Shown here: piece by piece, positions 1 to 59,454 of the stretch
Numbering within the stretch: the first letter of the stretch is position 1
How the letters are laid out: each line of letters opens with the position of its first letter
Origin: Fidelibacterota bacterium
GTDB lineage: Bacteria > Fidelibacterota > UBA8477 > JABMPR01
Direction of reading: 5' to 3'
Assembly (NCBI GenBank): GCA_016844945.1
Contig: JAERTJ010000086.1
Location: 36,180 to 100,179 of the forward strand
Length of the DNA: 64,000 nucleotides
The notes under the pieces: generated by a model
The model's input: only the letters and a program-made list of their open reading frames with translations
Database searches by the model: none
What the model was told of the DNA's origin: nothing
Program-made: the position numbers and the translations under genes

Positions 1-924
1 CGTGATGGTACTGGCATCTCCAAAAAGTGGATACTGTTCATTTGGGTCCACATCCACAAACAACTGATCCAGATAACCTCTATCCGTATCCAGTGACGCT
101 GTCAGTCTCAGGCCAGGTTTGATACTCCCCTTTGCATAAAATGCAGTACGACCACCCAGTAGGACATGATCACCTAGAGTGGTATTGTTTTGATTCAATA
201 AACCAAAATGTGGTAGTGCATCTGGATTCTGGTCTTCAGCTAGCGTTGAAAGCCCTGCACTTGCAGCACCCACCAGGATAAGCGGTTCCTCAGGGATAGA
301 ATAACTCACCTGGATTTTTTCAGTATAGCCTTGAGAAGCAATTTCCAGCGTGGCTCGTTCTGTGGCAACATCAGGAGCCTGGATTGTGAGTGTAACAAAT
401 CCTTCTATGACCCTTAATTGGAACCCCCCAGAAATTTCATCAGCATCGGGGTCAATAATTGTTCCCGAACTTAGATTCACATTGACAATTTTGAGATCAT
501 GAAGTCGATACCCCCATTCATCCTGGAGTTCGAATTTGTATGTGTGGGTGGTTCGTCCATCAGCAGGCAGTTGGATTAAGCCTGCAGAACTAATAATTTT
601 TTTTGTAGTTCCCAGTGAGTGGATTACTCTTTCAGAAGCGTACTGTTTGCCCCCTGCACCCTCAGCTTCAATGCGGATTTTTACAGGACCTGGAGGAATT
701 TCAACGTTTAGAAAATCTAACAGTCCGTCAATTCTAAATGATTCTGTAGCAACAGCGACATCATTGATATACAGGGTTGCAGGCGCACCTGCTACTCCAG
801 CGACGGTAACTGCTACATGATTGGATTGGGTCACAGTATTTTCTTTGGGTTCTAAAATCAGAACTTGTCCAAAGAGGATAGAAGAAAACAGGAGACCGCT
901 AAAAATTTTGAGTAGTCTATTCAT
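1..924 (-). CDS. Secreted protein, N-terminal 308 codons only (3' end runs off the window). It has a signal peptide, an Ig-like (Big_1/invasin-like) region, then a possible outer-membrane-type segment.
   Basis: My own minus-strand translation from the ATG at 924-922 gives MNRLLKIFSGLLFSSILFGQ... and stays open to position 1. It is absent from the ORF track because no stop lies in the window. The ATG overlaps the stop (917-919) of the upstream 2240-aa gene by 8 nt. LPADGRTTHTYKFELQDEWG resembles a Big_1 motif. Confidence 0.6.
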   Translation of the reverse strand, partial: MNRLLKIFSGLLFSSILFGQVLILEPKENTVTQSNHVAVTVAGVAGAPATLYINDVAVATESFRIDGLLDFLNVEIPPGPVKIRIEAEGAGGKQYASERVIHSLGTTKKIISSAGLIQLPADGRTTHTYKFELQDEWGYRLHDLKIVNVNLSSGTIIDPDADEISGGFQLRVIEGFVTLTIQAPDVATERATLEIASQGYTEKIQVSYSIPEEPLILVGAASAGLSTLAEDQNPDALPHFGLLNQNNTTLGDHVLLGGRTAFYAKGSIKPGLRLTASLDTDRGYLDQLFVDVDPNEQYPLFGDASTIT

Positions 925-3900
925 TGATAGTCCCTGGTTCTTCATTATTCACGGATTTAACTGTGTCCTCAGGTTTTTCAAAGTTCACCTTGAGAACTCT
1001 TTCAATATTACTTGATAGTGCCAACCCATCCTTGTACAGTTGAACATTCATAAATAGATCGCGAACCCCTTCAACACCTTCTGGTGCGTTCAGGTGAATG
1101 GGTGTAACCACTTCGTATGTACCAGGTTCAACGCTCTCACTCCAAGATTTGATTGTCCCGGCAACATCAACATACTCTAAATCATTTGTCAGAGCCAGCG
1201 TAATTGCCATGGAATCTGCTCCTGCATAGGCTGGGAAGCTCAGGTTGAATAGAACCGTTGAGGCTTGGTTCGAAGGAATCACCAGGGCTGAATCAGGTGA
1301 CATAGTTTTTAATGGATCGATTGGGACAACAATCTTCTGTTTCAGAGATTCTTTGATAACATCCAATTCAAGCAATGCGGCTTCACCGACTTCAGCATTC
1401 ACCAGTACTTCAACACGGCGGTTCGTAGCTCTACCAACCCAGGTTTCATTATCGCCTGTTGGATAGTGAGGACCTAAGCCGTGGGTATGGATATTTTCAG
1501 GATTGACTGCATAATTCTCTATCAAATAATTCTTAACACTGGTTGCTCTCCATTCAGATAGGAGCATGTTAAATTCCAGACTTCCTCGATTGTCTGTGAA
1601 TCCCTCAATGACAATCTCAATATCCGGTTGCCATGAAAGGAAATCACCCAATTTGCGAAGACTTGGATAGGCGGATGGTTTCAGGTCTGCTGAACCTACG
1701 TCAAATTGTGTACCTTCAAGAATCATGTTGAAGGAGAGTGTCTCAACAAGGGTTGATATGCGAGTCTCAAGACTGTCTGTAGTGACCACGTTACCTTCCT
1801 CATCGACCATTTCCAGATAGGCGGATACAACACCCGTATTCTGTACTTCATCATAGTCTTCTGGTTTCATGGATACATCAAATTCTTTATGCGTCTTGGA
1901 TTTCCAGTCACCAAAGCTCCACACATCTGATTCACTGGCATGAACGATGGGTTCAAGATTGGTAGAATCGAGCAGGGCGGTACCTTCTTTATAGGCAAAG
2001 CCAGGAGGTAGTTGTTGATGGAATCTGATACCGTGAATGGGTACTTCACCTGTGTAGTTGATATCATACATGAACTCGAGTTGGTTAAATTCAGAGTCAT
2101 CTTCAACGGCGTTATAAAAGACGAGTTCTACACGACGATTCAGAGCACGACCTTCAGGTGTAGCTCCGTCAGCCAATGGTGTTGAGGCGCCCATACCCAG
2201 TGCTTTAATGCGATCTGCATCAATACCCATAGTTTGTATCAGGTAGGTTCTGATCGCTTCTGCACGGGCCTCTGAGAGTGCCTGGTTATCATCAAAGGAA
2301 CTTCCTGGTGCAAGTGGCAGGTGGTCGGTATGACCGTTAATGTCCAGATTGATCTGTGTCTGCCATTTCATCAGGTCGCCAATGTTTTTCAGCTCACTGA
2401 AAATTTCGCTCTGGAGTGTTGCAGATCCAGATACAAAACCAATTCGAATTAACAGACTCCATGGCTTGTATACCAGAAGTCTAAATTCTTCGGTGAGCAT
2501 CTCGGTCTTCATTTCTAGGGTGGATTCTTTACTCAAGACACTGACCAGTTCAAGTTTTTCCAGTGGGATGTTTATGTTTGCACTATCCCCTGAGAATATT
2601 GTTGTGGTCCAATTGCTGAGAGCTAAGCCAATTGAATCCAGTGATGAATCAGACATAAACAGAGTAGCAAATGAAGGCAAGCTGCTTTCATCTATACTCA
2701 AACTCAGGTCACCAAGTGGTGTTTTATCGAAGGTATATTTACCCAGGCTATCTGTCATTGCTACCAGTGAGTCATTGAGTATCATTCGGATATTTGCTTG
2801 AACATCTTCCTCAGTATCCCACATGCCATTACCATTCATATCGTAGTATGCCGTTCCAGTGAGTTTGCCAGGAATAGCAATTTCAGTCAATGCAAAGTTG
2901 ACCTTTGCAATACCGGCGGCAGCGACACGAACAATTTTACTCTGAGTGTCACCAAGATAATCAGGTGAATCAAGAATAATCTCACTGAGGTCAGGTAAGG
3001 TGCGTTCGTTGACACGGATAACATGCATACCGGCTTCAACATCTGGTACGCTGTACTTACCATATTCATCGGTGATGATTCTGGCACCATTTTCCATGAT
3101 GAGTTCAACATTTTTCACTGTTTCCTCATTGTTGTCATGGATGCCATTGGCGTTGGTATCATAGTAGACTTTACCAATGATGAGACCGCGGTCACTAAAC
3201 AGACCCGGTTTTACAATTACATCGGCAGTTGCCAGGTTAGAAATGACAGGGAAACCCAAGAGGGTATGACCCCGAGCCATTACTTCATTTGTATTTGTCC
3301 CTTCGCGGCTGTTCATACCTGAGATTATGCGATATTTCATCACATATGTCTCACCAGGTTGCAACGTGTCACCAATGGTCCAGGACATGGCAATTCGTTT
3401 TCCTGCAGCTTCATTGAAATTTGGATCTCCAATTTTGGATTCATTCCAATAGCTGGTGTTTTTGCGGTATTTAAAACCGTAAGGAAGCACATCTTCGATT
3501 ACAAAGTCATGGACGATGTCATCAACACTGGTGTTGGTCATTTTCACTGTATAAGTGATGACGTCACCAATTTCGATAACACGACGGTTACTTTGTTTTT
3601 CAACTTTAAGGAATGGGAAGATAATTTTGGTCTTCGCATTCGAGTTCGGATTTCTATCGCTCCAGGTGCTATCAAGTTCACTAGCTACGAGTACGCGATT
3701 TTCAATCCATCCCAGACCTGCATCGATTGTAATCTTTGCATCGAATTCAATCGTGATTGAATCATTGACATTAATACCCGCTCTCTCAAATCTCATTTCA
3801 TTTGAGAATGCATCCAGACCAGTATAGACGGTGTTCATATCCGTCTGGATAGATGTCTCAATCAGATTAAGTCCTGTGGGTAGATAATCAGTGATAAACA

Positions 3901-6900
3901 CTGAGTCTAGGAAGGTTACATCTTGAGTACCCAGATTAATGACATAGTGGAGTGTATCTCCCACTGCGGCTTCAACCTTATCTACGGTCTTAATGGCGTA
4001 GAAGGGAGAACTTCTCAGGGTAACATTGGCATTCACAACGTATAGTCCAGGAGTTGTTAGATTTACATCTAGTCCGCCATCGCTATATGAGCTGATGCCA
4101 TTATAGACAACCTGAAGACTGTATTCGCCTGGATATAAATTCGTAAAGAAATACTGTCCAGTAGAATCAGTATAGGTTGAGTCGGTCATGTGATGATCGG
4201 CGGTTTTTCCCAGGGTTGATGTTGTATCAATAACATCACCATTGACGATGACAAGGATACTGTCCTCAGAAATGACTTCACCTGTAATTTCATCATATAA
4301 CCAACCTGAAACAGAATTGAGATTGGTAACCAAAGATCCTTCATTTGGTGTAGCAATTTCAATTTCCTGTACGGTTTCATACTCATTACCATCATCACCT
4401 ATCAGTGTGTAGATAATCTGATAAAAATCATCGCGATAGATAGGAATGAGATAGTAACCGTCAGCGTTGGTACTATCATGACCTGCATATTCGCCTGTTT
4501 CTACATATCTCAATTCAACCCGGACACCTTCTTGGGGAAGACCTTCATAATTGTAGATAATTCCGTCAAAGGCTCCAATCATGAAGACAACCTGAGTTGT
4601 GTCATCAGCATAATCGGTGGCTGAGTAAATAGCCCTGGCGTAAGGTGTAGCTGTCACCGCTTCAAACAGGACGGTATCAGATACCAGCGTGCTAAATGCG
4701 ACACCATCAACAGTGGAAGATGTCAATGCTGAATCAGGAATAGTACCTTCATCAGTATAGAAGTTCACATTTACGCCATCTGGTACCGGATTGCCCAGGA
4801 ATGAATATACATGAGCAGCCAGGGTTGAGAAGGAAGCACCGTTACCAAGAATTGTTCTGGGGTCAGCATCAAGAACAACACTGAGGGGTAGAATATTCGT
4901 AGTCAGAGCTTCCGCAGGAATATCTTCAGACTCATTAGAAACTAACCAGGCACGGTTTCCAACTTGAGCACCATGTTCCAGCATTGCAGTAACTGTGGTA
5001 GTAATGGTGAAACTTTCTGTCTGCTCAACATTGAGTGGTCCGATGTTCCAGGACAGTGAATGTGAGGCTGGATCATAATCATAATTTCCAGTTGCACCCA
5101 GGAATGTCACCCGTGAATCGAGTGTATCCAGGATAGTCACACCACTTGCATGGTCGGTTCCATAATTAGCAACATCCAGTTGGTAGTGAATCGTATCTCC
5201 AGGGAAAACCTCAAGATCTGCTGTTTTGGTAAACACAAAATCTGGGCTTGCCACGACGATAGCCAACCAGGTTGCTGAAGCTTGTAAGATATTATCTGAG
5301 TAGATATAAGCTGTATTTGGTATTTGCAAACCATTGGGTAGAGGATAGTTAACCTCTACATCAATCGTATACTCTGCAGCAGGTTCAGTGACTGCATGTA
5401 CCTGATCTCGGCCAGATGAAGAGTTTTCACTGATTTTACCAGCGACACCTTCTGGCTCCGTAGGTTCAAGGTCACCAATATTCCATGTTACGGCGTGACT
5501 GGAGGGATCATAGATTCCACCATTCGATGCACCACGGAATGTGACTTCTTCTGGCAGTGAGTCAACCACAATAACGTTTGTCGCTATTGTGTCACCCACG
5601 TTTTCAAAAGAGAGGTCATATTGGATCAATTCACCTGCTAGGATGTATGTTGTGTCAGCAATGAGAACAATATTCATCACTGGAGCACGCAGGGTCGTAT
5701 TGAATATATCAACACTTTGCGCACCTTGTTCACATGTAAGGAAAGCACCATTGGGAAGTGAGCCAGTGCCAAGTAAGTCATCACGTACTTTTGCAGTAAT
5801 CCCTACGACACCAGAATCACCAGGAGCCAGATCTTCAAGGTTCCAGGTTACAATTCTAGTCAGCGGATCATATGCATGCTGACGTGTTGCACTGATATAT
5901 TCAAGATTGATATCCAGTGTGTCATGAAGTACAACACCAGTCGCAATCTCTGTTCCCATGTTGCTGTAATCCAGATTATAGAGGATGGTGTCCCCAGCCA
6001 TGACAATCCGATTTCCACTGATGTCCAGGAATAGCCCTGGAGTCGAGTGAATCTCGGTACTTATTGCAGATTGGGTAGCACTACCTTCGATACAGGATAA
6101 GTGAGCCGTGTTTTCCAGAGTTGTGCCATCGATAACCGGATATTTCACATATGTGACCAGTTCCAGAGAATCGGAAGCACCCGAGGCTACATTTCCAATG
6201 TTCCAGAGAACACTGTGGCTTGCCTCATCATATTCATAAGCGATTGAACTAGAGCCCACAGTTAGTTCTGGGGGAAGGGTATCAGTCAAGACCACATCGT
6301 GGGCCATTGAATTACCGGTGTTACCCATTACAAAGGTATACACCAGCGAATCCCCGGCCAGGACTGTTGGTTCAGCTAACTTCTCTAGTACCAATTCAGG
6401 GAAAGCAGCCAGTGATACAGTATGATCACCAAAATTACTTCCTGCATTGGTCGTAGATATCCAGGCTCTATTTGTTACTTGTGGTCTGGCTTCAAGGAGC
6501 GAGCCGACCACCGTTACAACGGACAGGTTAATTTCACTTCCAGAATTCAGAGTGCCCAGCGTCCATTGGACGGCACCATCTTCAAATTCTCCATCATTTG
6601 ATGCGGACAGGAACTGAAGTGGATGGGGCAGTGTATCTGTTACGTTGATATCATTCACGGGATCTGGAGAAGTGTTATCGATCGTGATAACGAACTCAAT
6701 CGTATCTCCATAGCCATACTCACTATCTGCAGCCCATTTTTCAATAGTCTGAATCCATGGATTAGCAAGTGAAGTAGCAGAAGCTTCGTTGGAAGCGCCT
6801 TCATCATTCACAACCATGGCTGTATTGGTAAGGTTGGTATTGGCTGGCATTGACGCATTAATAACAACGTCTAATGTGATACTGGCTGAGTCACCCTCTG

Positions 6901-7639
6901 CAAGATCTCCAAGCATCCAGGTTACCGTGCCATCTGCAAATGTTCCACCTTGGGAAGCATTTGCAAAACTGACGTGTGCTGGTAGCTCATCCGAGACAAG
7001 AGTACCCGTAGAAGTAACATTGCCTGTGTTATATACATTGATGGTATAATGAGTCGTATCTCCCACCAGGGAAACATCCTCAGCAACCAATTTTGCAATA
7101 ACCAGGTCTGAAAATGATCCGATAGTTACATCAACGGATTCACTAGATAGTTCAATTCCTCCAGGAATAGCCAACCAGGCGATATTTGAAATCACCTCAT
7201 CAGCAGGAAGATTTGAATCTACAAGAACTTCCAACTCGATCACAAAGTTTGCGCCACCTGCGAGTTCTGGTACATCCCAATTCAGGATTTGACCATCAAT
7301 ATTCGCAGCAGGCAAACTTGAGATCAACTCAAGTCCTGTACCCAATGTATCAGTTATAGTAAATGGATCGGGTGAAGTATTACCTGTGTTTGAAACAGTG
7401 ATTGTATAGGTCAAACTCTCGCCTGGTGCCACAACACTGGCACTTGCGGATTTGGAGATTGTCAGTACGGAACCTGCTGCAACTGTCGTTTCGACATTGT
7501 TGGAGCTATTAACAAATGTGACCTCAGCAGCATCCTGGTGGGATGACTGTGCCACATTGTTAATCACGGTACCAACTGGAACCTGACCAAATACCACGGC
7601 TCCCATGAGGGAGATTAAGGCGAGGATTCGTCTCATCAT
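917..7639 (-). CDS. Giant (2240 aa) secreted envelope protein. It has many DUF11-type 'conserved repeat' domains, carboxypeptidase-regulatory-like and SdrD-B-like modules, and two C-terminal OmpA-like peptidoglycan-binding domains.
   Basis: Signal peptide MMRRILALISLMGAVVFGQ. Reiterated (L/I)xYTITVxNTGN...V.DTLP..L motifs. GKVYYDTNANGIHDNNEE and GTAYYDMNGNGMWDTEED are SdrD-B-like. OmpA motifs are NGHTDHLP...LSEARAEAIRTYL...NRRVELVF (~2110-2480) and EGFTDNRGS...LSEWRATSVKNYL...NRRVEVLV (~1395-1725). Confidence 0.9.
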   Translation of the reverse strand: MMRRILALISLMGAVVFGQVPVGTVINNVAQSSHQDAAEVTFVNSSNNVETTVAAGSVLTISKSASASVVAPGESLTYTITVSNTGNTSPDPFTITDTLGTGLELISSLPAANIDGQILNWDVPELAGGANFVIELEVLVDSNLPADEVISNIAWLAIPGGIELSSESVDVTIGSFSDLVIAKLVAEDVSLVGDTTHYTINVYNTGNVTSTGTLVSDELPAHVSFANASQGGTFADGTVTWMLGDLAEGDSASITLDVVINASMPANTNLTNTAMVVNDEGASNEASATSLANPWIQTIEKWAADSEYGYGDTIEFVITIDNTSPDPVNDINVTDTLPHPLQFLSASNDGEFEDGAVQWTLGTLNSGSEINLSVVTVVGSLLEARPQVTNRAWISTTNAGSNFGDHTVSLAAFPELVLEKLAEPTVLAGDSLVYTFVMGNTGNSMAHDVVLTDTLPPELTVGSSSIAYEYDEASHSVLWNIGNVASGASDSLELVTYVKYPVIDGTTLENTAHLSCIEGSATQSAISTEIHSTPGLFLDISGNRIVMAGDTILYNLDYSNMGTEIATGVVLHDTLDINLEYISATRQHAYDPLTRIVTWNLEDLAPGDSGVVGITAKVRDDLLGTGSLPNGAFLTCEQGAQSVDIFNTTLRAPVMNIVLIADTTYILAGELIQYDLSFENVGDTIATNVIVVDSLPEEVTFRGASNGGIYDPSSHAVTWNIGDLEPTEPEGVAGKISENSSSGRDQVHAVTEPAAEYTIDVEVNYPLPNGLQIPNTAYIYSDNILQASATWLAIVVASPDFVFTKTADLEVFPGDTIHYQLDVANYGTDHASGVTILDTLDSRVTFLGATGNYDYDPASHSLSWNIGPLNVEQTESFTITTTVTAMLEHGAQVGNRAWLVSNESEDIPAEALTTNILPLSVVLDADPRTILGNGASFSTLAAHVYSFLGNPVPDGVNVNFYTDEGTIPDSALTSSTVDGVAFSTLVSDTVLFEAVTATPYARAIYSATDYADDTTQVVFMIGAFDGIIYNYEGLPQEGVRVELRYVETGEYAGHDSTNADGYYLIPIYRDDFYQIIYTLIGDDGNEYETVQEIEIATPNEGSLVTNLNSVSGWLYDEITGEVISEDSILVIVNGDVIDTTSTLGKTADHHMTDSTYTDSTGQYFFTNLYPGEYSLQVVYNGISSYSDGGLDVNLTTPGLYVVNANVTLRSSPFYAIKTVDKVEAAVGDTLHYVINLGTQDVTFLDSVFITDYLPTGLNLIETSIQTDMNTVYTGLDAFSNEMRFERAGINVNDSITIEFDAKITIDAGLGWIENRVLVASELDSTWSDRNPNSNAKTKIIFPFLKVEKQSNRRVIEIGDVITYTVKMTNTSVDDIVHDFVIEDVLPYGFKYRKNTSYWNESKIGDPNFNEAAGKRIAMSWTIGDTLQPGETYVMKYRIISGMNSREGTNTNEVMARGHTLLGFPVISNLATADVIVKPGLFSDRGLIIGKVYYDTNANGIHDNNEETVKNVELIMENGARIITDEYGKYSVPDVEAGMHVIRVNERTLPDLSEIILDSPDYLGDTQSKIVRVAAAGIAKVNFALTEIAIPGKLTGTAYYDMNGNGMWDTEEDVQANIRMILNDSLVAMTDSLGKYTFDKTPLGDLSLSIDESSLPSFATLFMSDSSLDSIGLALSNWTTTIFSGDSANINIPLEKLELVSVLSKESTLEMKTEMLTEEFRLLVYKPWSLLIRIGFVSGSATLQSEIFSELKNIGDLMKWQTQINLDINGHTDHLPLAPGSSFDDNQALSEARAEAIRTYLIQTMGIDADRIKALGMGASTPLADGATPEGRALNRRVELVFYNAVEDDSEFNQLEFMYDINYTGEVPIHGIRFHQQLPPGFAYKEGTALLDSTNLEPIVHASESDVWSFGDWKSKTHKEFDVSMKPEDYDEVQNTGVVSAYLEMVDEEGNVVTTDSLETRISTLVETLSFNMILEGTQFDVGSADLKPSAYPSLRKLGDFLSWQPDIEIVIEGFTDNRGSLEFNMLLSEWRATSVKNYLIENYAVNPENIHTHGLGPHYPTGDNETWVGRATNRRVEVLVNAEVGEAALLELDVIKESLKQKIVVPIDPLKTMSPDSALVIPSNQASTVLFNLSFPAYAGADSMAITLALTNDLEYVDVAGTIKSWSESVEPGTYEVVTPIHLNAPEGVEGVRDLFMNVQLYKDGLALSSNIERVLKVNFEKPEDTVKSVNNEEPGTINE

Positions 7640-7701
7640 CCGCTCATGGGATTCGTGTGGAGGGTTTTGAACCTAAAAATCACGTTAGCCTTTAGGGAGC
7701 C

Positions 7702-9468
7702 TTAGTCGATTACCACATCAAAAGTAATGACTTGTGGATCACTAACCGCTACAGTGCCGAAGGTAATAGTGACAACACCTTTGGAGTTAACTCCACCAGT
7801 AGTTGTTGCTACGACTTCATCAGCATCTGAACCATCAGTCTTGGTAACATTGTTGATTTCAACAGTACCGGTCTGGTAGGTTACGTCTGCAGGAATGTGG
7901 TCGGTAATGACGACAGTTCTGGCATCCGCATGTCCTGAGTTGGTTACGGTGAGTGTGTAGGTTAAGGTTGTCCCTGGAGGCTGATCACCTGAAGGTGAAA
8001 CAGCTTTCAGAAGACCAGTTTCGCTTACAATGACAGGTGCAAGACAGGTAATGGCACCAGTTGCACTATCAGTGGCAGGATCGTTGGCTGAAGTAGCTGT
8101 AAACGTGAGATTATCATTGGCTTGATCAATGGTACCACCGACGATTGTTGCTACGGCGATATATGAGATCGATGCATCTGCAGCCAATGTTCCAGTATTC
8201 AATGAAGCTACTGGTGTATTGTCTTCTGTACCGCTTAGAAGGCCATCACCATTGGTATCAATGTAAAAGACCCAGACAGTTGTAAAATCAGTGTCTGTGA
8301 GATCTGCATCCGTAACTGGTGAACTGAAATTGAAATTATCATTGCCATTTCCGTCATTGGTGATGGTGAATGGGTACTTGATAGTGTCAATGGCAGCTTC
8401 GCCAGTAAAGGAAGTCGATGCTGCACCAGTATGTTCAACGGTCACACCATAAGTCTGTGCAACTGATGGACCACCGGTGTTATCAGTTGGAACATCAGCA
8501 GGATAGGGAACATCATCTTCATTATCGAAGGTGATTTGTGGGGTATCTGGTGTCAGATCAAGATCTGCAAGTGCATCTGTTGGAACAACAACAGAATAGG
8601 TGACACAAAGCTGAGGGTCAGTAGTCAGCATGTCTCCAATAGGAACAGTCAGTACGCGAGATTGTGTGTCATAATCAACAGAACCTGATGGAATCTGTGT
8701 GGCACCAACGTACACACTGTTCAGATCGAGTGTTACGCCAGCTGGGATAACCGTTGTATAGACCAGACCATAAGCAGTTGCTGTACCATCATTTGTTAGA
8801 CAAACGGAGTACTCTACTGCATCACCTGGCTGTGGAGTTGGATCATCCACAGTGATCACAGCGTCGATTGAAGCAGCCTGAATAGTGGTGGTCAGTATGA
8901 TGGTTGCATCAACTGGAGCACCTGCATCCTGACTCAGATTATAGGCAGATGCGCCAGTAATCGTCAGTGTGTGCTCACTGGCAGCAGGAGAACCACCTGA
9001 GAAGGTGTCAGTAACGCGGACAACCAGCCGATAGTACTCATCGATATCGATACTACCAGTTGTGTCGACAATACCATCGTCAATTTCTGCCTGCTCAAGT
9101 GTTCCATTCCCATTTAGATCATGGTAGATCTCATAGGTGAATGATGAACCAGCAGTTGCTGCATCTGAAGCAGCAATGGTAAAGTTATCGAAATCATTAC
9201 CATTGTTCTGAAATGCCACTGAGTAAACAGTGGATGCCATGGTACTCATGGCTTTGTCGAGTGTTGTACCGAATGATGCATACGCTACCTGACTAACGGT
9301 AGTTGTCACTTCGTTAGAGGCGACTGCATCCATTGCAACTCCACTGGCATCATTGTAGGTACCAGTTGCCATATTCGTAATGGTCGTTCCAGAACGAGTA
9401 ATGGCGCTTGCTGTTGCGACCATCCCTAACAGGACGATTGCCACGATTAAGAAGCGTGTAGGTTTCAT
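7702..9468 (-). CDS. Secreted DUF11-type repeat protein (~588 aa).
   Basis: I chose the internal start MKPTRFLIVAIVLLGMVATASA (signal peptide), which has GGAGGG 7 nt upstream. DUF11-like units include TLTYTLTVTNSGHADARTVVITDHIPADVTY and AVEYSVCLTNDGTATAYGLVYTTVIPAGVTL. Confidence 0.8.
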   Translation of the reverse strand: MKPTRFLIVAIVLLGMVATASAITRSGTTITNMATGTYNDASGVAMDAVASNEVTTTVSQVAYASFGTTLDKAMSTMASTVYSVAFQNNGNDFDNFTIAASDAATAGSSFTYEIYHDLNGNGTLEQAEIDDGIVDTTGSIDIDEYYRLVVRVTDTFSGGSPAASEHTLTITGASAYNLSQDAGAPVDATIILTTTIQAASIDAVITVDDPTPQPGDAVEYSVCLTNDGTATAYGLVYTTVIPAGVTLDLNSVYVGATQIPSGSVDYDTQSRVLTVPIGDMLTTDPQLCVTYSVVVPTDALADLDLTPDTPQITFDNEDDVPYPADVPTDNTGGPSVAQTYGVTVEHTGAASTSFTGEAAIDTIKYPFTITNDGNGNDNFNFSSPVTDADLTDTDFTTVWVFYIDTNGDGLLSGTEDNTPVASLNTGTLAADASISYIAVATIVGGTIDQANDNLTFTATSANDPATDSATGAITCLAPVIVSETGLLKAVSPSGDQPPGTTLTYTLTVTNSGHADARTVVITDHIPADVTYQTGTVEINNVTKTDGSDADEVVATTTGGVNSKGVVTITFGTVAVSDPQVITFDVVID

Positions 9469-9554
9469 TTTAAACCCTCCTTTTGTTTGCTTCTGTTGTT
9501 GATTAATATTTTGGGATTCCATGTTGGAATCTTGGTTCATGCTTAAAGTTTTCA

Positions 9555-10049
9555 TTAGTTGTTAACCTCCACTAAGAATTCCATTGTTGACTTTTCACCC
9601 GGTTGCAAATCCTTCTGAATTGCCCATTTGATATGGGTAATCATTTCCGGGGTTGCTTCACGTTTGATCAGAATACCCTTTGAGTTTCTAACCGTATAGG
9701 TGGGCGGCCAGGCCATATAGGTTCCGCCCTGGTTCAAGGAATAGCTAATTTCCGTGTTATCACCTCTAGCACTTTTGGGGACATATGTCACACCAGCGGG
9801 AATAGGATCGACAATCTCCGGATCCGTCATCAGACCGGTACCAACATTTGAGGCAGTCAAGACATACTGGATGGTGTCACCAGGTGAATACGTCACTTGG
9901 GCTCCATCGACTATCTCAGCTGCTGTCAGATTGACTTTGGAATCTTCAACATGGAGTTCGAGCTTCGGTGCACCTTGACCGAAAGCCATCGAAATACTCA
10001 TGATAGCAATTACTGCCATTTTCCAACTATTGCTTCTCTCACTCTTCAT
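9555..10049 (-). CDS. Small secreted single-DUF11-domain protein (~164 aa), first gene of the operon.
   Basis: The start at MKSERSNSWKMAVIAIMSISMAFGQ (signal peptide) is preceded by GGAGGAAGAG. The domain motif is DTIQYVLTASNVGTGLMTDPEIVDPIPAGVTYVP. The 104 codons further upstream in the track ORF look non-coding. Confidence 0.7.
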   Translation of the reverse strand: MKSERSNSWKMAVIAIMSISMAFGQGAPKLELHVEDSKVNLTAAEIVDGAQVTYSPGDTIQYVLTASNVGTGLMTDPEIVDPIPAGVTYVPKSARGDNTEISYSLNQGGTYMAWPPTYTVRNSKGILIKREATPEMITHIKWAIQKDLQPGEKSTMEFLVEVNN

Positions 10050-10145
10050 CTCTTCCTCCGTTGTTGCATTTTCAGTCACAAATAATTTTTTGTAACCAAC
10101 AGAATTTTTTGAAATCTCTAGGGGATTTTCTGTGTTCATTTCCGA

Positions 10146-10161
10146 TGTGATTTTTGTCACA
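10146..10161. promoter_or_regulatory. Perfect TGTGA-N6-TCACA palindrome (CRP/FNR-superfamily-type operator) about 100 nt upstream of the DUF11 operon start codon.
   Basis: The sequence aTGTGAtttttgTCACAt was read directly and matches the classical CRP half-site arrangement exactly. Confidence 0.4.
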
Positions 10162-10922
10162 TTAAAAAAATTCTGAATCGCACAAATCAAACTTACCTGA
10201 CTGGGATTCTGCCCGTATTGCTCCAGAGCTACAGGATGGAAATTTGAAGAGTTCAATTCACTCCTGATGGCTCTTGTTTTAAAACCTTGAGAATTCACAG
10301 ATAGACCTGTCTTTGTCTCAATAGTTTTGTGGGCGCTGTATGTTTCTTTTCTCGTTCTCATATATACATCCTTATATAAGTCAAAGGTTATGCCACCACT
10401 TTTTAGGCAGGTTATAATATTGTTTTTATTTGTTTTATATTGTGTTTTATTTGATCACTATATGACATAGTAAATTGTTTTGTCATAATTTTTTGACAAC
10501 TCAATCTCGAATAAGAATATTTTTGTTACAACAGGGGGAATTTCCGAAAATCTGCTAAATTTTTGATTGGCGAAATATCTACCACGGAATCCGTGAATTT
10601 AATGACAATATCTCACAACCTACCTTCATTCTGATCTCAAATATATTCAGTAATGTTGGATAATATGAGTGCTTCTAGAGCTCTGTTTTTGCATCTAATC
10701 CTGGACACTGATGGTAACCAGGTATTGAGCTGATATTTGTTATGATGTGATGTTTCTTGTCTCCCGATTGTATGAATTCGCCTATGTAATGATCAGGAAT
10801 AATTTGTCATACTCGCTGTGAAAGTGACAAAGCCCGGGATCATTCGAATCGTTGAAGTGATGTATGTTTTTTACGTGACTCTAGTAATACTTGCTATTAT
10901 GACATATCAAATGCAACGAAAG

Positions 10923-10936
10923 TGACAATATTGTCA
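10923..10936. promoter_or_regulatory. Perfect 14-bp palindrome TGACAATATTGTCA within a cluster of TGACA/TGTCA half-sites.
   Basis: Read directly. Further half-sites lie at 10462-10467, 10481-10486, 10494-10499, 10804-10810, 10824-10830, 10899-10905 and 10946-10963. Confidence 0.3.
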
Positions 10937-11505
10937 ATCTGTTATTGTGATTTTTTTTGTCACTTATGCGTGAACTCAGAGCCTTAGATCAATCCAGAAT
11001 TATCAATATTAAGGACGACTTATTATTCCATCTTCCTGATTCATCTCTAATCTGTAGTTAAATACCAGGACCTACTGACAAACCCTTATAATGCAACGAT
11101 TTTCTACACTTTATCTTCGAATGTTTCAGTTTCACTCCCTCATTTTACTTTGCATAATCCAGGCAAATATGAAGCAACAATAAAATCTAACAATAGCTAC
11201 TGACATACCTGAAAAACTGTAATAATTTTGATATATTAGAAGAATATTTAGAAAATATGATAATATTCAATAAAATACATGTATATTGCCTACAGCAATA
11301 CATGCTATTACACATATTACATTTTATGTAATATCGCGAAGTAACATAGCTAGTTCGAATTTCAAAATAGAGGCTAAAATCCAATGAATTTCGACCGATA
11401 CTTTCAGTAGTGTGCGATTGTGGGTTTGATAAATTGATTTGTCCATTGGAATAGTCTATTTATCTTGTCCAATTGAAACAAATCAACACGATGTGAGGGC
11501 ATGAA

Positions 11506-11964
11506 ATGGATTCAATGATTCTAATTATCAGCGTGAGTGCAATACTTGTCTTAGGACTTGCAGCTATTCTACTGTCAACAGGTGGAAAAAAGAAAAAGCG
11601 TAAGGTTAAGCGTAAGGGAACAGTTAATAAAAACGCTGTTGAAATAGATCCAGAAACCCTCTGCACGAAAATTTTTAAACTTGCCCCATCAGAATCAAAA
11701 AAAGCCAAGCAAAACTACATCGGTCGCACAGTGGAAGTTCGCACCATTCTTGGAAGCAGCAATCGCTCCAAAAAGGGTAGCAATTTTAGAGAGGTTGTCC
11801 TTGATTATCAGGACAATCGAAAGTTTCATATTATTGGTGATATCAATATGAAAGATTATAAAGATCAATCGTGGATGACCCGCGAAGGAAAGTTAAAGGT
11901 TGTGGGCGTGGTAAAAGAGATCACCAAAATGGAAATTCACCTGGACAAGCTTAAAATCATATAA
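11506..11964 (+). CDS. Hypothetical membrane-anchored protein: an N-terminal TM helix, a Lys-rich linker and a ~100-aa soluble domain.
   Basis: The ATG is preceded by GAGGG. The N-terminus reads MDSMILIISVSAILVLGLAAILLS followed by GGKKKKRKVKRKG. I recognised no family. Confidence 0.6.
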   Translation: MDSMILIISVSAILVLGLAAILLSTGGKKKKRKVKRKGTVNKNAVEIDPETLCTKIFKLAPSESKKAKQNYIGRTVEVRTILGSSNRSKKGSNFREVVLDYQDNRKFHIIGDINMKDYKDQSWMTREGKLKVVGVVKEITKMEIHLDKLKII

Positions 11965-29078: not shown

Positions 29079-29154
29079 GGCTGCGTAGCTCAGTTGGTAG
29101 AGCAGTTGACTTTTAATCAATTGGTCGTAGGTTCGATTCCTACCGCAGTCACCA
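29079..29154 (+). tRNA. tRNA-Lys (anticodon UUU), CCA encoded.
   Basis: GGCTGCGTAGCTCAGTTGGTAGAGCAGTTGACTTTTAATCAATTGGTCGTAGGTTCGATTCCTACCGCAGTCACCA folds as a cloverleaf. The anticodon loop is CTTTTAA. Confidence 0.95.
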
Positions 29155-39357: not shown

Positions 39358-42300
39358 CTATTTTTCTTTCAACAATCGTCTTTCAGCAATCATAACGTAC
39401 AGAACAGGTACTACAAAGGTATTCGAGATGGCGAATAACATCCCACCAAAGGTTGGGATTGCCATGGGCACCATCACATCTGCACCCCTCCCTGATGAGG
39501 TTAAAACAGGTATCAAGGCAAGGAGTGTAGTCGCTGTTGTCAGCATCGCAGGGCGAATTCGTTTCATACCAGCCAGTATGGCAGCCTGATGAATATGTTC
39601 AACTGAGTCTGGTTTTAATCTCTCAAAAGATTGATCCAAATAAGTTGAAATCAGCACCCCATCATCTGTGGCAATACCAAAAAGGGCTAAGAATCCAACC
39701 CAAACTGCGACACTCAAGTTAATCTCGTGAATCTGAAATACTTCCCTCAGTTCCAGGCCAGCTACAGACACATTCATAAACCAGGGCTGTCCATACAGCC
39801 AGATGAGGGTAAAACCACCAGCCCAGGCCACAAATATTCCAGAGAACACGATCAATGTAGTCGAGCTTCGTTTGAATTGGAGATATAGAATTACAAAAAT
39901 GGAAGCCAGGGCTAAAGGTAACACAATCCGCATGCGTTTTGTCGCCCGCTCCTGGTTTTCATAAGAGCCTGTAAAACTATAGCTGAGCCCTTCTGGAATG
40001 GAAAGTTGATTGCTACGGATCAGTTCCTCCAGATATCCCTCCGCCTGCTCGACAACCTCTACTTCAGCAAAACCATCCATTTTGTCAAAAAGAACATATG
40101 AAAGGAGAAAGGTATTCTCACTTTTAATGACCTGGGGACCCCGGGTAAAATTAATGGTAGCTAGCTGCCCCAACGGAATTTGGGCACCTGACTTTGTTGG
40201 AACCAGGATAGAAGCAAAGCTTTCATCATCCTGGCGATAATCTCGCATGTATCGTATCCTAATCGGATATCGTTCCCGGCCCTCAACTGAAGTTCCGACT
40301 TGTTTTCCGCCAATAGCAACTGCGATAACCTCATGCACTTCACGGACGGATAATCCATACCGAGCGATGGCATTCCGATTGATGTCGATCTCAAGATAAG
40401 GCTTCCCTACAATTCGATCCGCAAAAACAGCACTTGCTTTAACTGAGGGTACTTCTTTGAGTCGCTGCTCCAATTCTAACCCGAAGGATTCCATGGTTTC
40501 GATGTCTGATCCCTGGATCCTAATCCCCATAGGTGCGCGCATCCCACTTTGGAGCATGACCACTCGGGCAGCAATAGGTTGCAATTTTGGTGCGGAAGTG
40601 GTCCCAGGTAACTGGGCAACCCTGACAAGTTCGTCCCAGATGTTTTCACTGCTTCTGATGTGATCACGCCATTGCCTGAATGGTTTACCTCCTTGATCAG
40701 GGATTAACTCACCAGAATTGTCATAGATAAAATCTCCTAATGGATTTGTCTTGAACCGCAACGGATTGCCTGCAGCATCTTGAAGAAACTCTGACTTGTA
40801 AGTAATCACGGACTCGATCATGGACAGGGGTGCTGGATCAAGGGGGGTTTCTGCTCTGCCGATCTTACCTACCACATTTTCAACTTCAGGAACCGATGAT
40901 AAGGCACGATCCAATGTGGATAGCACATCCAGGGATTCTTCAACACCTGCATGGGGCATTGTAGTAGGCATATAGAGAAATGAGCCTTCATCCAGAGCCG
41001 GCATGAATTCCCTACCCAATCCAGGAAATGTATGGACCATCTGCTGATATGGGCGACTTGAACGGATCCCCTGGGGAGACCACCCAAACAAGAAATCGAA
41101 ACCCAGCCAGGCATTCAACCCTAGCAGGATAATTGTGGTTGGAATGAGCAGCGCATAGCTTCTGTGACTCATCATCCATGCTAAAATCCCTGGGTATAAG
41201 TCAGTGAACTTCTGGATAGAGAAAAGGATGAGGGCGACCAGCAATGCTACAAAGGTGAAATTTGACAGGATGCTATACTCATACCCCAGTGGTACCCAGG
41301 TGAGTGTGAGTAAAAAAATAATCCCTGTGGCCAAAAGAAAATTCAAAGTCTTCTCATCATATAACCATGAGTAGGCCTGTAGTTTCGATTTGAGGAGCTG
41401 AGCGATCGCTGTAAAGACTAGAATGATACCCAGTACAATGCTATAAAAGCCAGTAACTCCCACACCAACCAGGAGTAAGACGGTTAAGAATGCATTCTTG
41501 ACCCAGTTTGATTTAGATTTCACAGAGAATAGGAAGCTTGCGAATGTTGGCAGTACCAATACCGCCAGGACAACTGAGGAAATCAATGCAAAGGTTTTTG
41601 TATAAGCCAGGGGCTTAAACAGTTTTCCTTCTGCGCCCTCCATGGTGAAAATGGGAAGAAAGCTGATGACGGTTGTTGAGACTGCCGTCAAGATGGCTGG
41701 TCCAACTTCTCGTGCTCCATCATAAACTCTTTCGGTGACCGTTCCTGAGGATTCTGGATCATCCAATTTTTTCAGGATATTCTCAGTCATTATGATTCCC
41801 ATATCTACGATTGTACCAATTGCAATGGCTATCCCTGATAGGGCGACGATGTTTGCGTCAACGTTGAACAATTTCATCCCGACAAAAGTGATGAGAACGG
41901 CGGCTGGCATGAGCAGACTGATGAGGATTGAAGCTCTCAATTGCATGAGAAGAACCAGGATGACAATAGCTGTAATGATCAATTCATCCCGTAGGGCATG
42001 ATTCAGTGTACCAAGGGTTTCATGGATAAGTGCAGATCGATCGTAGAAGGGAATGATATTGACCTTTGATACACGACCATCCTCCAGAGTTTTTGCAGGG
42101 AGCCCAGGCGAAATTTCATTGATTTTCTGTTTGACAGCATTTATTGTAGCCAGCGGGTTTTCACCGTACCGGGTGGTCACGACGCCCCCCACCACTTCAG
42201 CTCCACCCTTATCCAGAGCACCCCGTCTTAATGCAGGTCCGTAACTTACATGAGCCACGTCAGCAATTCGAATGGATGCATTATCAATAACTTTCAAAAC

Positions 42301-43113
42301 TGTTGCTTCGATATCCTCAAGACTTTGAATAAAGCCTAGGCCTCGAATCATATATTCCACACGATTTATCTCAACTGTGCGTGCCCCAATTTCATTATTG
42401 GCATCTCTTACTGCCTGGAAAACCTGGAGTAAAGAGATGTCATAATGCCTCAAAGCCTGAGGATTCACATCAATCTGGTACTCCTTGACGTATCCACCCA
42501 CAGAAGCAACTTCAGATACCCCGGAGGCTGTAGATAAACCATATTTGACATAATAATCCTGGATGGATCGCAGCTCATCCAGATTCCACCCTCCTGTGAC
42601 CGTTCCATCTTTATCTCGTCCTTCAAGGGTATACCAGAACACTTGCCCCAACGCTGTTGCATCAGGTCCTAAATTTGGTTTGACAGCTTCAGGGAGGGTT
42701 CCTGCTGGCAGCGCATTGAGTTTTTCAAGGATTCGACTTCTGGACCAATAGAAATCAACTTCTTCATTGAAAATCACATAGATCGTTGAAAAGCCAAACA
42801 TGGAGAAGGAGCGGACTGTTTTTACTTCAGGTGTCCCCAGCAGGGCTACAGTAAGTGGATAAGTGATTTGGTCTTCGATATCCTGGGGAGAACGCCCTGC
42901 CCATTCTGTGAAAACTATTTGCTGGTTCTCCCCAATATCAGGAATGGCATCTACGGAAATTGGAGCTCGATCTATCCCTGGAATATCCCAGTCAAAGGGT
43001 GCCGACAAAATTCCCCAGACCATGAGACCCAGGAATAAAACCAGAGTGATCAACCGGTTCTCGAGGGGTATGCCCAGAATTCTGTCCAGGAGGGATCCCG
43101 CCCGTTTAATCAT
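39358..43113 (-). CDS. cusA: CusA/CzcA-family heavy-metal efflux RND pump, unusually long (1251 aa).
   Basis: N-terminus LENRLITLVLFLGLMVWG...DAIPDIGENQQIVFTEWAGRSPQDIEDQITYPLT. There is an extra hydrophobic insertion at about 41100-41530. Confidence 0.9.
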   Translation of the reverse strand: MIKRAGSLLDRILGIPLENRLITLVLFLGLMVWGILSAPFDWDIPGIDRAPISVDAIPDIGENQQIVFTEWAGRSPQDIEDQITYPLTVALLGTPEVKTVRSFSMFGFSTIYVIFNEEVDFYWSRSRILEKLNALPAGTLPEAVKPNLGPDATALGQVFWYTLEGRDKDGTVTGGWNLDELRSIQDYYVKYGLSTASGVSEVASVGGYVKEYQIDVNPQALRHYDISLLQVFQAVRDANNEIGARTVEINRVEYMIRGLGFIQSLEDIEATVLKVIDNASIRIADVAHVSYGPALRRGALDKGGAEVVGGVVTTRYGENPLATINAVKQKINEISPGLPAKTLEDGRVSKVNIIPFYDRSALIHETLGTLNHALRDELIITAIVILVLLMQLRASILISLLMPAAVLITFVGMKLFNVDANIVALSGIAIAIGTIVDMGIIMTENILKKLDDPESSGTVTERVYDGAREVGPAILTAVSTTVISFLPIFTMEGAEGKLFKPLAYTKTFALISSVVLAVLVLPTFASFLFSVKSKSNWVKNAFLTVLLLVGVGVTGFYSIVLGIILVFTAIAQLLKSKLQAYSWLYDEKTLNFLLATGIIFLLTLTWVPLGYEYSILSNFTFVALLVALILFSIQKFTDLYPGILAWMMSHRSYALLIPTTIILLGLNAWLGFDFLFGWSPQGIRSSRPYQQMVHTFPGLGREFMPALDEGSFLYMPTTMPHAGVEESLDVLSTLDRALSSVPEVENVVGKIGRAETPLDPAPLSMIESVITYKSEFLQDAAGNPLRFKTNPLGDFIYDNSGELIPDQGGKPFRQWRDHIRSSENIWDELVRVAQLPGTTSAPKLQPIAARVVMLQSGMRAPMGIRIQGSDIETMESFGLELEQRLKEVPSVKASAVFADRIVGKPYLEIDINRNAIARYGLSVREVHEVIAVAIGGKQVGTSVEGRERYPIRIRYMRDYRQDDESFASILVPTKSGAQIPLGQLATINFTRGPQVIKSENTFLLSYVLFDKMDGFAEVEVVEQAEGYLEELIRSNQLSIPEGLSYSFTGSYENQERATKRMRIVLPLALASIFVILYLQFKRSSTTLIVFSGIFVAWAGGFTLIWLYGQPWFMNVSVAGLELREVFQIHEINLSVAVWVGFLALFGIATDDGVLISTYLDQSFERLKPDSVEHIHQAAILAGMKRIRPAMLTTATTLLALIPVLTSSGRGADVMVPMAIPTFGGMLFAISNTFVVPVLYVMIAERRLLKEK

Positions 43114-49898: not shown

Positions 49899-50143
49899 AA
49901 TTTTTTATACTTCTTCTCTATATTTTTCCTCTGGTAAAACCCGTGGATTTAACTGTGGATGTATATCCCAGCCAGTGCGAATTGGTTGATCCTTGTAGTA
50001 TTATATAACATGTTACCTTCACCGTTTTAAACGTATCACCCCTCCAGGATTTAAAAAAGTCCGGGGTAAAGAAATGAGTTTTATACTTTGAAAGGGAAGT
50101 GAAGATTAATCCTCCACTTCCCTGCAATAATTTTGAGTGGCCT

Positions 50144-54840: not shown

Positions 54841-54862
54841 GGTGATTCCTAAAGCGAGATGT

Positions 54863-59433: not shown

Positions 59434-59454
59434 ATGATGGTTGAATACCCTTTT

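Follow-up and report, generated by a model that had tools for sequence, protein, structure and literature searches.

A Four-Gene Locus

The stretch of DNA analyzed here, referred to as the window, comprises 64,000 nucleotides of a Fidelibacterota genome (assembly GCA_016844945.1, contig JAERTJ010000086.1, positions 36,180–100,179 of the forward strand) and opens with four genes, g1 to g4, that may encode a surface fiber assembled from separate subunits. Judging from the best homologues, the organism belongs to Candidatus Marinimicrobia (SAR406/Neomarinimicrobiota). All four genes lie on the minus strand. The first, g1 (9555–10049), codes for a small subunit of 164 residues, g2 (7702–9468) for a medium subunit of 588 residues, g3 (917–7639) for an anchor subunit of 2240 residues, and g4 (1–924) for a predicted outer-membrane barrel protein, of which the first 308 of 1030 codons are visible before the gene runs past the window edge. 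Gaps of 87 nt (g1–g2) and 62 nt (g2–g3) separate the first three genes, and the stop of g3 overlaps the start of g4 by 8 nt (917–924; ATGAATAG). Gene calls agree in these respects with an earlier note, made from the nucleotide sequence alone, that had pointed out four tightly spaced, co-directional genes, the sizes of the first three products and the overlap, which is real.

Each product begins with a basic stretch followed by a hydrophobic stretch and a small-x-small cleavage site, from which we read signal peptides comprising residues 1–24 (g1), 1–22 (g2), 1–18 (g3) and 1–19 (g4), as the earlier note had done; by the same reading none of them contains a lipobox Cys. Public annotations give g1 as a protein of 268 residues. 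Across seven orthologues, mismatches in the upstream extension are distributed over codon positions 1, 2 and 3 without periodicity (861/955/967), whereas those in the 164-residue gene are strongly periodic (583/369/1422). Because substitutions are periodic only within this shorter part, the 268-residue reading was ruled out and the start of the 164-residue protein is taken as correct.

CLIPPER Domains and the Anchor Protein

The domain that recurs in the locus is DUF11 (PF01345), known since 2025 as CLIPPER. Crystallography of one repeat from a putative fibrillar adhesin of Acinetobacter silvestris has shown this domain to be a CnaA-like β-sandwich with an intramolecular Lys-Asn isopeptide bond, the formation of which is catalyzed by an Asp (PMC12617251). 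Searches with Pfam and NCBIfam models return one DUF11 match in g1 (E 2.8e-6; TIGR01451 2.8e-10), two in g2 (2.9e-13) and nine DUF11 stretches in g3 (E 1.7e-112), together with two SdrD_B, one CarboxypepD_reg and two OmpA domains in the latter (E 1.8e-37). These are the families that had been named before any database search. The initial count of more than ten DUF11-like repeats in g3 was too high: a repeat model of 109 states, built from g3 repeats, gives nine clear repeats and one degenerate repeat between the OmpA domains, or about ten.

From its N-terminus, g3 consists of the signal peptide, a hairpin that is discussed below, seven CLIPPER repeats (residues 58–907; 4919–7468, on the minus strand like all features of g1 to g4), a middle region of Big-like and carboxypeptidase-regulatory-like β-sandwiches (908–1211; 4007–4918; CarboxypepD_reg E 1.2e-11), two further CLIPPER repeats (1212–1458; 3266–4006), two SdrD_B-like domains (~1470–1700; 2540–3232), a first OmpA-like domain (1735–1835; 2135–2437; GHTD...SEARA...NRRVE), the degenerate CLIPPER repeat, a second OmpA-like domain (1975–2082; 1394–1717; GFTD...SEWRA...NRRVE) and a C-terminal β-domain of ~155 residues. 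Big_1/Invasin_D3 is annotated on the orthologue of g3 in related locus L007. Both OmpA domains carry the conserved (G)xTD...LSxxRA...NRRVE motifs, and many OmpA/Pal/MotB models match them in NCBIfam. No adhesive-domain family from Pfam or NCBIfam matches g3; the signal peptide is followed by half a domain, the hairpin, and then by repeats. The C-terminal domain of the type IX secretion system (T9SS; PF18962/CHU_C) is absent from all four products by Pfam and present on the product of another open reading frame (ORF) of the window (59518–63243), as the earlier note had stated.

The anchor protein also matches TIGR04226, "isopeptide-forming domain-containing fimbrial protein", with 98 bits. Its sole sequence match in the PDB is 9IFR; in the alignment, the Lys of g3 repeat 1 corresponds to K715 of this structure and the Asp to D748. 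The Lys/Asp/Asn triad corresponding to K715/D748/N806 of 9IFR is complete in repeats 1–4, 7 and 9 and probably in repeat 8, while repeats 5 and 6 lack the Lys. Among 307 complete repeats, the Lys is found in 79%, the Asp in 90% and the Asn in 86%. Most repeats of g3 thus possess the residues for the predicted isopeptide bonds. Viewed alone, the giant g3 is a further CLIPPER-stalk adhesin with an OmpA anchor. It is not unprecedented, because a single-chain CLIPPER stalk with an OmpA-like anchor has been described from Acinetobacter silvestris (PMC12617251). The earlier statement that no characterized system has this composition thus fails for g3 alone. It stands insofar as the homologues of the locus carry no functional names: close homologues are listed only as "hypothetical", "DUF11 domain-containing" or "OmpA family".

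A CLIPPER Domain Split between Genes

The last CLIPPER domains of g1 and g2 are truncated. The g1 domain, which follows the signal peptide as the only domain of this protein (residues ~40–164; 9558–9932), covers states 2–86 of the repeat model and reaches the C-terminus of the protein. The medium subunit g2 consists of its signal peptide, an N-terminal hairpin, about four Ig-like domains and the C-terminal truncated domain (residues 478–588; 7705–8037; ending in VITFDVVID). Both proteins terminate at state 86 of 109 (g1 with EFLVEVNN, g2 with ITFDVVID), whereas internal repeats extend to states 101–109. Since both stop right after strand 7, these domains lack the strand that carries the Asn and the strand that follows it. 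Lys488 (8005–8007) and Asp523 (7900–7902) are present in the g2 domain, which has no Asn strand of its own. Alignment to Pfam gives the same picture: the DUF11 match of g2 ends at profile position 80 of 114, and the C-termini of non-anchor subunits fall at positions 80–84. Across 66 loci from about ten phyla, 96 of 100 non-anchor CLIPPER ORFs end no more than three residues from the FxVxV strand; just 22 of 64 anchors fit a loose version of this pattern.

The mature N-terminus of g2, GTTITNMATGTY...SNEVTTTV, resembles, as does that of g3, the junction between internal repeats (ISNIAWL...SESVDVTI). Following the Ala at the cleavage site, the segment ITRSGTTITNMATGTYND...SNEVTTTV is a copy of the two strands that are missing from the truncated domains. 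Mature g3 starts after a Gly with QVPVGTVINNVAQSS...SNNVETTV (GTVINNVAQSS), a copy of the same two strands; an internal junction for comparison reads ...EVISNIAWLAIPGGIELSSESVDVTI. The hairpin of g2, hereafter the donor, corresponds to CLIPPER strands 8–9 and spans residues 23–60 (ITRSGTTITN32MATGTYND...SNEVTTTVSQ; 9289–9402), with Asn32 encoded at 9373–9375. That of g3 spans residues 19–56 (QVPVGTVINN28VAQSS...SNNVETTVAAG; 7472–7585), with Asn28 at 7556–7558. Both place the donor consensus GTxIxNxA...SNxVTTxV directly after the signal peptide, and the consensus PAGTxIxNxA is common to donors and internal repeats.

A second model of 123 states was built from 150 internal repeats only, with reversed sequences as a control. 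The N-termini of anchors and medium subunits align to states ~86–116 of this model, and scores above 8 bits were obtained for 36 of 59 anchors, 28 of 50 medium subunits and none of the reversed sequences. The N-termini of small subunits match the start of the domain instead (states 11–41). The subunits can be sorted into three classes: small or tip proteins with a truncated acceptor domain only, medium proteins with donor and acceptor, and anchors with a donor only. Because it has no N-terminal donor hairpin, g1 is acceptor-only and would serve as a tip or cap. Besides the ~160-residue small subunit, this class contains larger proteins with varied N-terminal modules (SdrD_B, Calx-beta, HYDIN-like Ig, DUF6923).

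The residues that would form a bond across the split are well conserved. N32, K488 and D523 are invariant among 46 orthologues of g2 (mean column identity 40%), and the most conserved part of this protein is the donor hairpin, in which T24, I30, N32, A34, D40, S51, T56, V58 and Q60 are invariant. The truncated acceptors of medium subunits keep the Lys in 28 of 29 cases and the Asp in all 29. Anchors retain the donor Asn in 37 of 40 cases, and their hairpin is among the best-conserved segments. Since the acceptors maintain Lys and Asp without an Asn strand of their own, it is simplest to assume that another chain provides the Asn, in trans, and that the joint becomes covalent.

The AlphaFold2 (AF2) monomer model of g2 contains the donor hairpin as strands with a predicted local distance difference test score (pLDDT) of 83–93. 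Foldseek comparison of this model with the PDB returns Ig arrays, BcpA among them, at template modeling (TM) scores of ~0.2 and no specific relative. Since the model is confident in both the hairpin and the C-terminal domain, and since medium subunits bear both elements on one chain, the hairpin of g2 might complete the C-terminal domain of the same molecule. Closure in cis would give clasped monomers that function as separate adhesins. High confidence in both elements is also what AF2 gives for self-complemented chaperone-usher pilins. A molecule closed in cis might, moreover, be no end product but a short-lived intermediate that chaperones itself. Tips such as g1, with an acceptor and no donor, and anchors such as g3, with a donor and no acceptor, must pair in trans or stay unpaired, and the conservation of the anchor hairpin including its Asn also speaks against closure in cis. 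On balance we regard self-closure as improbable and favor pairing between subunits.

One family of acceptor-only proteins of ~600 residues recurs from Marinimicrobia to Nitrospirae (L019 178–2382, L029 1668–3527, L030 556–2331, L056 482–2299 and L083 4433–6268). These proteins start with a region of ~370 residues that has no database match (motifs ESWPL...W.P and GxIYDTRD..P.S.AG.W), followed by CLIPPER domains and a truncated acceptor. This region is a candidate for a conserved tip module.

A Predicted Giant Outer-Membrane Barrel

The part of g4 beyond the window was recovered as protein P0021, which contains 1030 residues and is 100% identical to g4 over the 308 residues visible in the window. 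An AF2 model of the full protein based on 67 sequences (mean pLDDT 81) shows two β-sandwich domains at residues 22–210 (295–861), in line with the Ig-like N-terminus suspected from the partial gene, and a β-barrel at residues ~216–1022, the start of which is encoded at 1–279. The barrel is predicted to consist of ~36–40 long strands. At ~38 strands, it would be among the largest single-chain barrels known. After about the seventh or eighth strand, the model contains an inserted domain (~372–460) with the strongest motifs of the family (GEGISGFYY, GTLMFKQP and NPIFIVVSYE). The topological position of this insertion is reminiscent of the usher plug, which in FimD sits between strands 6 and 7.

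Along with this inserted domain, residues 284–309 of P0021 (DQLFVDVDPNEQYPLFGDAS; window positions 1–75 encode residues 284–308) rank as the most conserved parts of the protein; the segment has several invariant D, G, P and Y residues, yet it is of low confidence or disordered in the AF2 model. It was also considered as a pseudo-donor strand (DQLFVDVDPNEQYPLFGDASTITYDAQ), a proposal that we rejected because its similarity to the repeat model did not exceed that of reversed controls.

No sequence match to the barrel family was found in Pfam, NCBIfam or the PDB, and a profile of the barrel searched against PDB sequences produced chance matches to Ig domains only (E > 0.03). Foldseek against the PDB returned giant barrels exclusively, none of them a specific relative, at TM-scores of ~0.2: SlpA from Deinococcus as the best match, the T9SS translocon SprA, MtrB, LptD and FimD. 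MtrB has the highest TM-scores among the barrel matches listed (0.24 query-normalized, 0.36 target-normalized), and FimD is a weak match at about 0.18. A word-indexed search with the N-terminus of g4 gave 2 matches only, whereas the 786-residue barrel part from related contig L001 as query retrieved ~145 full-length proteins of ~1030 residues, P0021 among them. By exhaustive profile search the family comprises at least 4,757 clusters at 50% identity (E<=1e-3), 2,347 of them with E<=1e-30.

Two features of individual homologues deserve mention. The barrel is usually C-terminal; in P0280, P0285, P0330 and P0333 (2,300–2,400 residues) it lies mid-protein and is followed by 340–470 residues. In two independent samples, one from JGI and one from Logan, a frameshift divides the g4 orthologue between ORFs of 242 and 786 residues (L001 10001–13119 and L002 8535–11653). 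All other orthologues are single ORFs of ~1030 codons. The split may reflect a pseudogene, a homopolymer error that recurs or programmed frameshifting.

Conservation of the Gene Cluster

The earlier note had looked to gene-neighborhood conservation as a check on the operon, and the genes indeed co-occur across about ten phyla. The 84-kb related contig L001 contains the same four genes in the same order. The barrel family occurs in at least 569 GTDB species genomes from Marinimicrobia/Fidelibacterota, Ignavibacteriota, Bacteroidota, Chlorobiaceae, Krumholzibacteriota, Latescibacterota, Lentisphaerota (the cultured Oligosphaera ethanolica DSM 24202), Verrucomicrobia, Nitrospirae and metagenome-assembled genomes of Deltaproteobacteria. 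Gene order is kept across phyla while barrel identity falls from 97% to 26%, and in 66 of 66 loci a CLIPPER protein is encoded directly upstream of the barrel or fused to it. We found no description of the gene cluster, of the barrel family or of split CLIPPER domains in open-access papers and preprints.

Three layouts can be distinguished. The layout of the window has genes for a small subunit (~160 residues), a medium subunit (~560–620 residues), a giant anchor and the barrel, in this order; the anchor contains two OmpA domains in 26 loci and one in others. In the fused layout (9 of 66 loci), anchor and barrel form one ORF of 1,600–2,000 codons with one OmpA domain or none; these proteins comprise a signal peptide, a stalk, a Pro/Ala/Thr-rich linker, Ig domains and the barrel, and they make up most of the top barrel matches listed in the exhaustive search. 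In Oligosphaera ethanolica (NZ_JAUSVL010000001.1, ~5,325,100–5,334,100; L075), such a fused gene is accompanied by a small and a medium one. The minimal layout of Bacteroidota and Ignavibacteriota is reduced to a putative helix-turn-helix regulator, one subunit of ~620–680 residues and the barrel. OmpA domains are missing altogether from half of the related anchors. All variants, even those without OmpA, retain the CLIPPER-SdrD_B module. The double-OmpA giant is therefore one variant, and the conserved core is the barrel together with CLIPPER subunits, at least one of which unites donor hairpin and truncated acceptor in one chain. Both the 8-nt overlap and the fusions speak for a joint action of anchor and barrel.

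This conservation bears on the most conservative interpretation of the locus, namely that the genes are neighbors and nothing else: g3 would be an ordinary single-chain adhesin, g1 and g2 independent proteins, g4 an unrelated porin-like protein, and the terminal motifs leftovers of repeat shuffling. Repeat proteins do recombine, the single-chain CLIPPER stalk with OmpA anchor from Acinetobacter is described as a putative adhesin in its own right (PMC12617251), and two porin-type Pfam families are precomputed on two barrel homologues. Shuffling would have to account for an identical truncation point in 96 of 100 subunits from phyla with barrel identities of 26–97%, for a donor hairpin that is the most conserved part of g2, for the constant position of a CLIPPER subunit upstream of or fused to the barrel in all 66 loci, and for the overlap of g3 with g4 and their fusion in many lineages. 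An accidental neighborhood appears very unlikely in the light of these observations, and we prefer to read the genes as parts of one fiber.

The distribution of OmpA domains bears on another possibility, a periplasmic strut that tethers the outer membrane to peptidoglycan in the manner of SlpA or OmpM and exposes nothing at the surface. Two canonical OmpA-like domains in g3, the SlpA tether as the best fold match of the barrel, and the absence of a known secretion signal or, by Pfam, of a T9SS C-terminal domain are all consistent with such a scaffold. Its dimensions are not: the ~20 Ig-like domains of g3 would extend to ~80 nm (estimated at 4 nm per domain), much farther than the width of the periplasm. 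One in two related anchors contains no OmpA domain, the modules of acceptor-only subunits are large, variable and of the adhesin-tip type (SdrD_B, Calx-beta, HYDIN-like Ig and DUF6923), and CLIPPER stalks are documented in surface adhesins. A purely periplasmic role is thus unlikely, if a little less so than closure in cis, and a fiber that reaches the surface remains our preferred reading.

Two variants of the cluster are of interest in their own right. Directly upstream of the CLIPPER subunit, minimal clusters encode a protein of ~300 residues (L040, L041, L045, L047, L050, L053, L059, L065, L068 and L071, at ~7000–8000 per locus) with a conserved excisionase/MerR-like helix-turn-helix N-terminus (LFTTNDAANxLRVDKSTVKRWTDEGKLKCFRTPGGHRKF). 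This protein may be a dedicated regulator. In L008 (1–9749), a CLIPPER giant of 3,984 residues (19 repeats in the partial sequence, two OmpA domains) stands directly upstream of the barrel and may represent an unsplit, single-chain version.

Proposed Assembly

These observations suggest how the four proteins may work together. Judging from their signal peptides, g1 to g4 would cross the inner membrane via Sec. The truncated domain of g2 may be kept soluble by transient self-complementation before assembly. The hairpin of one subunit would then complete the truncated CLIPPER domain of the next, so that g1 or another acceptor-only tip, g2 and g3 form a chain in this order, with its N-terminal end at the distal tip and its C-terminal end at the cell. 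At the joint between g2 and g3, the acceptor would contribute K488 and the catalytic D523 and the donor N28, and a self-catalyzed Lys-Asn isopeptide is the probable lock. Conservation of these residues invites comparison with a natural SpyCatcher/SpyTag pair. Because g3 has a donor and no acceptor, it would end the chain, with a stalk of ~17 β-sandwich domains, and its two OmpA domains, which carry canonical motifs, would tie the base to peptidoglycan. Translationally coupled to g3, g4 would place a barrel of ~36–40 strands in the outer membrane and two Ig-like domains in the periplasm; the barrel would be the platform or conduit through which the fiber is mounted. The whole would amount to a long fibrillar adhesin of the Acinetobacter type that is cut into separate polypeptides at a loop within a CLIPPER domain and re-joined after export.

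Several observations weigh against this mechanism. The cluster encodes no chaperone, sortase, ATPase or other energy source. The OmpA domains of g3 are interleaved with Ig-like domains, and part of the "stalk" must therefore be periplasmic. Minimal clusters of Bacteroidota and Ignavibacteriota contain no donor-only anchor. The donor Asn is swapped for I, A, H, S or T in some medium subunits, and the catalytic Asp is absent from the small subunits of some phyla. Some joints would then be non-covalent; from these substitutions, the tip-to-medium joint may often be of this kind and the medium-to-anchor joint consistently lockable. In silico chimeras of acceptor and donor extended the DUF11 alignment to profile positions 100–110 without a gain in score (from 35.2 to 32–34 bits); a reversed control gave much the same result, and the comparison has no weight either way.

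The connectivity of the subunits is also relevant to an S-layer or sheath, in which they would tile a two-dimensional surface lattice. For some archaea, a role as S-layer-associated porins has been suggested for DUF11 proteins (PMC12617251), and SlpA, with which the barrel gives its top fold match, is a component of an S-layer complex. With at most one donor and one acceptor per subunit, the connectivity is linear rather than two-dimensional, and neither lattice-forming nor SLH domains were found in g1 to g4 with Pfam and NCBIfam. We consider a lattice highly improbable. The idea of minor, major and anchor subunits of one fiber, put forward in the earlier note, thus gains from the truncated C-termini of g1 and g2 and the matching N-terminal strands of g2 and g3, while its alternative of a sheath finds no support. 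Subunit assembly and surface exposure themselves are inferences.

Weighing these arguments, we believe with some reservation that the locus encodes a tip-shaft-anchor fiber built by hairpin complementation, probably locked by Lys-Asn bonds, held on peptidoglycan by OmpA domains and mounted in or through the barrel. A broader and more tentative claim, which we would not yet put at even chances, is that such fibers constitute a new class in two-membrane bacteria ("split-CLIPPER"), made without chaperone or sortase, with SpyCatcher-like covalent joints and with export and anchoring through a ~38-strand barrel of their own. The new components would be the split CLIPPER domain, the hairpin donor, the likely autocatalytic lock and the unclassified giant barrel. 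Members of the class would differ in their style of anchoring (double OmpA, single OmpA or direct fusion to the barrel) and would have interchangeable tip modules.

Comparison with Known Systems

The closest parallel in mode of action, as distinct from membership, is found in chaperone-usher pili (FimH-FimG-FimF-FimA-FimI with FimD). There, too, an incomplete Ig-like fold is completed by the N-terminal extension of the next subunit, the tip has no donor, the shaft has both elements, the terminator has no acceptor, and the operon includes the gene for a large outer-membrane barrel. In contrast to these pili, the fold here is a CnaA-like CLIPPER domain, the donor is a two-strand hairpin instead of a single strand, and a covalent Lys-Asn lock is probable. 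The barrel has ~36–40 predicted strands compared to 24 and no sequence similarity to the usher, and the chain would be terminated by a protein that either has peptidoglycan-binding OmpA domains or forms one polypeptide with the barrel. A PapD-like chaperone was found neither in g1 to g4 (Pfam, NCBIfam) nor in the gene lists of the related loci that were fetched, and the Usher family (PF00577) does not match the g4 barrel.

The proposed lock has a precedent in BsaA of Clostridium perfringens, a member of the TasA family for which donor-strand exchange and an isopeptide lock (N35-K74-E56) are experimentally supported (bioRxiv 10.1101/2024.11.04.621531). Common to both systems are an N-terminal donor strand with an Asn, an acceptor Lys, an acidic catalyst and the absence of a sortase, and residues following the same logic are conserved at the expected places in g2 and g3 (N32/N28, K488 and D523). 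BsaA differs in its TasA/camelysin fold, in being homopolymeric and in its Gram-positive host, whereas the CLIPPER system would be heteromeric, spans two membranes and includes a giant barrel, with a bond that we infer from sequence. The TasA/camelysin fold (Peptidase_M73) has no Pfam match in g1 to g4. Archaeal threads (Saci_0406) likewise combine head-to-tail donor-strand complementation with intersubunit isopeptides, and a co-transcribed subunit without acceptor has been proposed as their cap (PMC9715654). They are homopolymers of an unrelated fold in cells without an outer membrane, and their non-canonical bond connects an Asn to the N-terminal amine between subunits n and n+2.

As to the stalk, the most similar protein is B9T28_05395 of Acinetobacter silvestris, a putative fibrillar adhesin of 2129 residues in which a CLIPPER/cadherin stalk links an adhesive N-terminus to an OmpA-like anchor at the C-terminus (PMC12617251). 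It resembles g3 in size, in its tandem CLIPPER repeats with intramolecular Lys-Asn isopeptides and in its OmpA-like anchor. Unlike this single chain with its own adhesive N-terminus, g3 is headless and opens with an orphan half-domain, and separate genes encode head and adaptor; neither split domains nor an associated barrel are described for B9T28_05395.

Sortase-assembled pili (SpaA, RrgB, BcpA) share with the proposed fiber CnaA/CnaB isopeptide domains, the logic of tip, shaft and base, and covalent links between subunits. Those links are Thr-Lys bonds made by a sortase, in contrast to the self-catalyzed, domain-internal bond proposed here. The subunits have neither an LPXTG motif nor a hydrophobic C-terminal tail, ending instead in FxVxV(K/N/D/Q), and no sortase gene is found among the genes called in the neighborhood or in related loci. 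Type V secretion offers a further analogy: the fused relatives consist of a signal peptide, a stalk as "passenger", a linker and a C-terminal barrel, and the split into g3 and g4 resembles the two-partner form. The barrel, however, is three times the size of that of an autotransporter (~36–40 predicted strands versus 12 or 16), additional subunits must attach to the passenger, and the Autotransporter, ShlB and POTRA families have no match in Pfam or NCBIfam searches. For fused proteins, the sheathing of MtrA by MtrB is a possible analogue of a barrel around a stalk.

If the proposal is correct, two-membrane bacteria possess a further route to fibers beside chaperone-usher, type IV and type V pili and curli, one that is common in abundant and poorly known environmental phyla (SAR406/Marinimicrobia, Ignavibacteriota, Latescibacterota, Krumholzibacteriota and others) and that would be a probable particle-attachment organelle of Marinimicrobia. 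It would imply that Gram-negative bacteria use intermolecular, self-catalyzed isopeptide locking, and would provide protein engineering with a large natural library of orthogonal Catcher/Tag-like pairs. The barrel would be a new giant outer-membrane family of at least 4,757 clusters that domain databases do not recognize and that bears on the export of large folded cargo.

Upstream Region and Neighboring Genes

The non-coding, AT-rich region upstream of g1 (10050–11500; 35% G+C) likely contains the promoter and leader of the operon. It has 22 promoter-like sites compared to 11.3 ± 3.7 expected. An Rfam scan of the window found nothing in this leader; the sole match is a tRNA gene at 29079–29151 (plus strand, 76.5 bits). 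The leader adjoining g1 (10050–10450, with equivalents in L001, L009, L010, L012, L015 and L021) is free of stops in the g1 frame for ~100–135 codons in at least seven related genomes and contains conserved stretches such as GGMSFDLYKEE.MRT.NETYS. Its substitutions show no codon periodicity, and it looks like conserved non-coding sequence rather than protein. An ORF of 152 codons (11506–11964, plus strand) is divergent from the operon within the AT-rich intergenic region; its product has an N-terminal transmembrane segment and a Lys-rich stretch and matches no family.

Farther along the window, 39358–44989 (minus strand) encodes a resistance-nodulation-division (RND) pair, an AcrB/CusA-like pump of 1251 residues and a CusB/HlyD-like adaptor with two heavy-metal-binding domains, which is probably a metal efflux system. 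The interval 46947–63243 (minus strand) is an α-glucan utilization cluster with a GDE_C/glucodextranase-like protein, two α-amylase-family proteins with CBM53/CBM48 and a fused solute-binding/permease protein. The ORF with the T9SS C-terminal domain mentioned above (59518–63243) belongs to this cluster as well and codes for a glycan-degrading CBM20/lamin-tail protein of 1241 residues.

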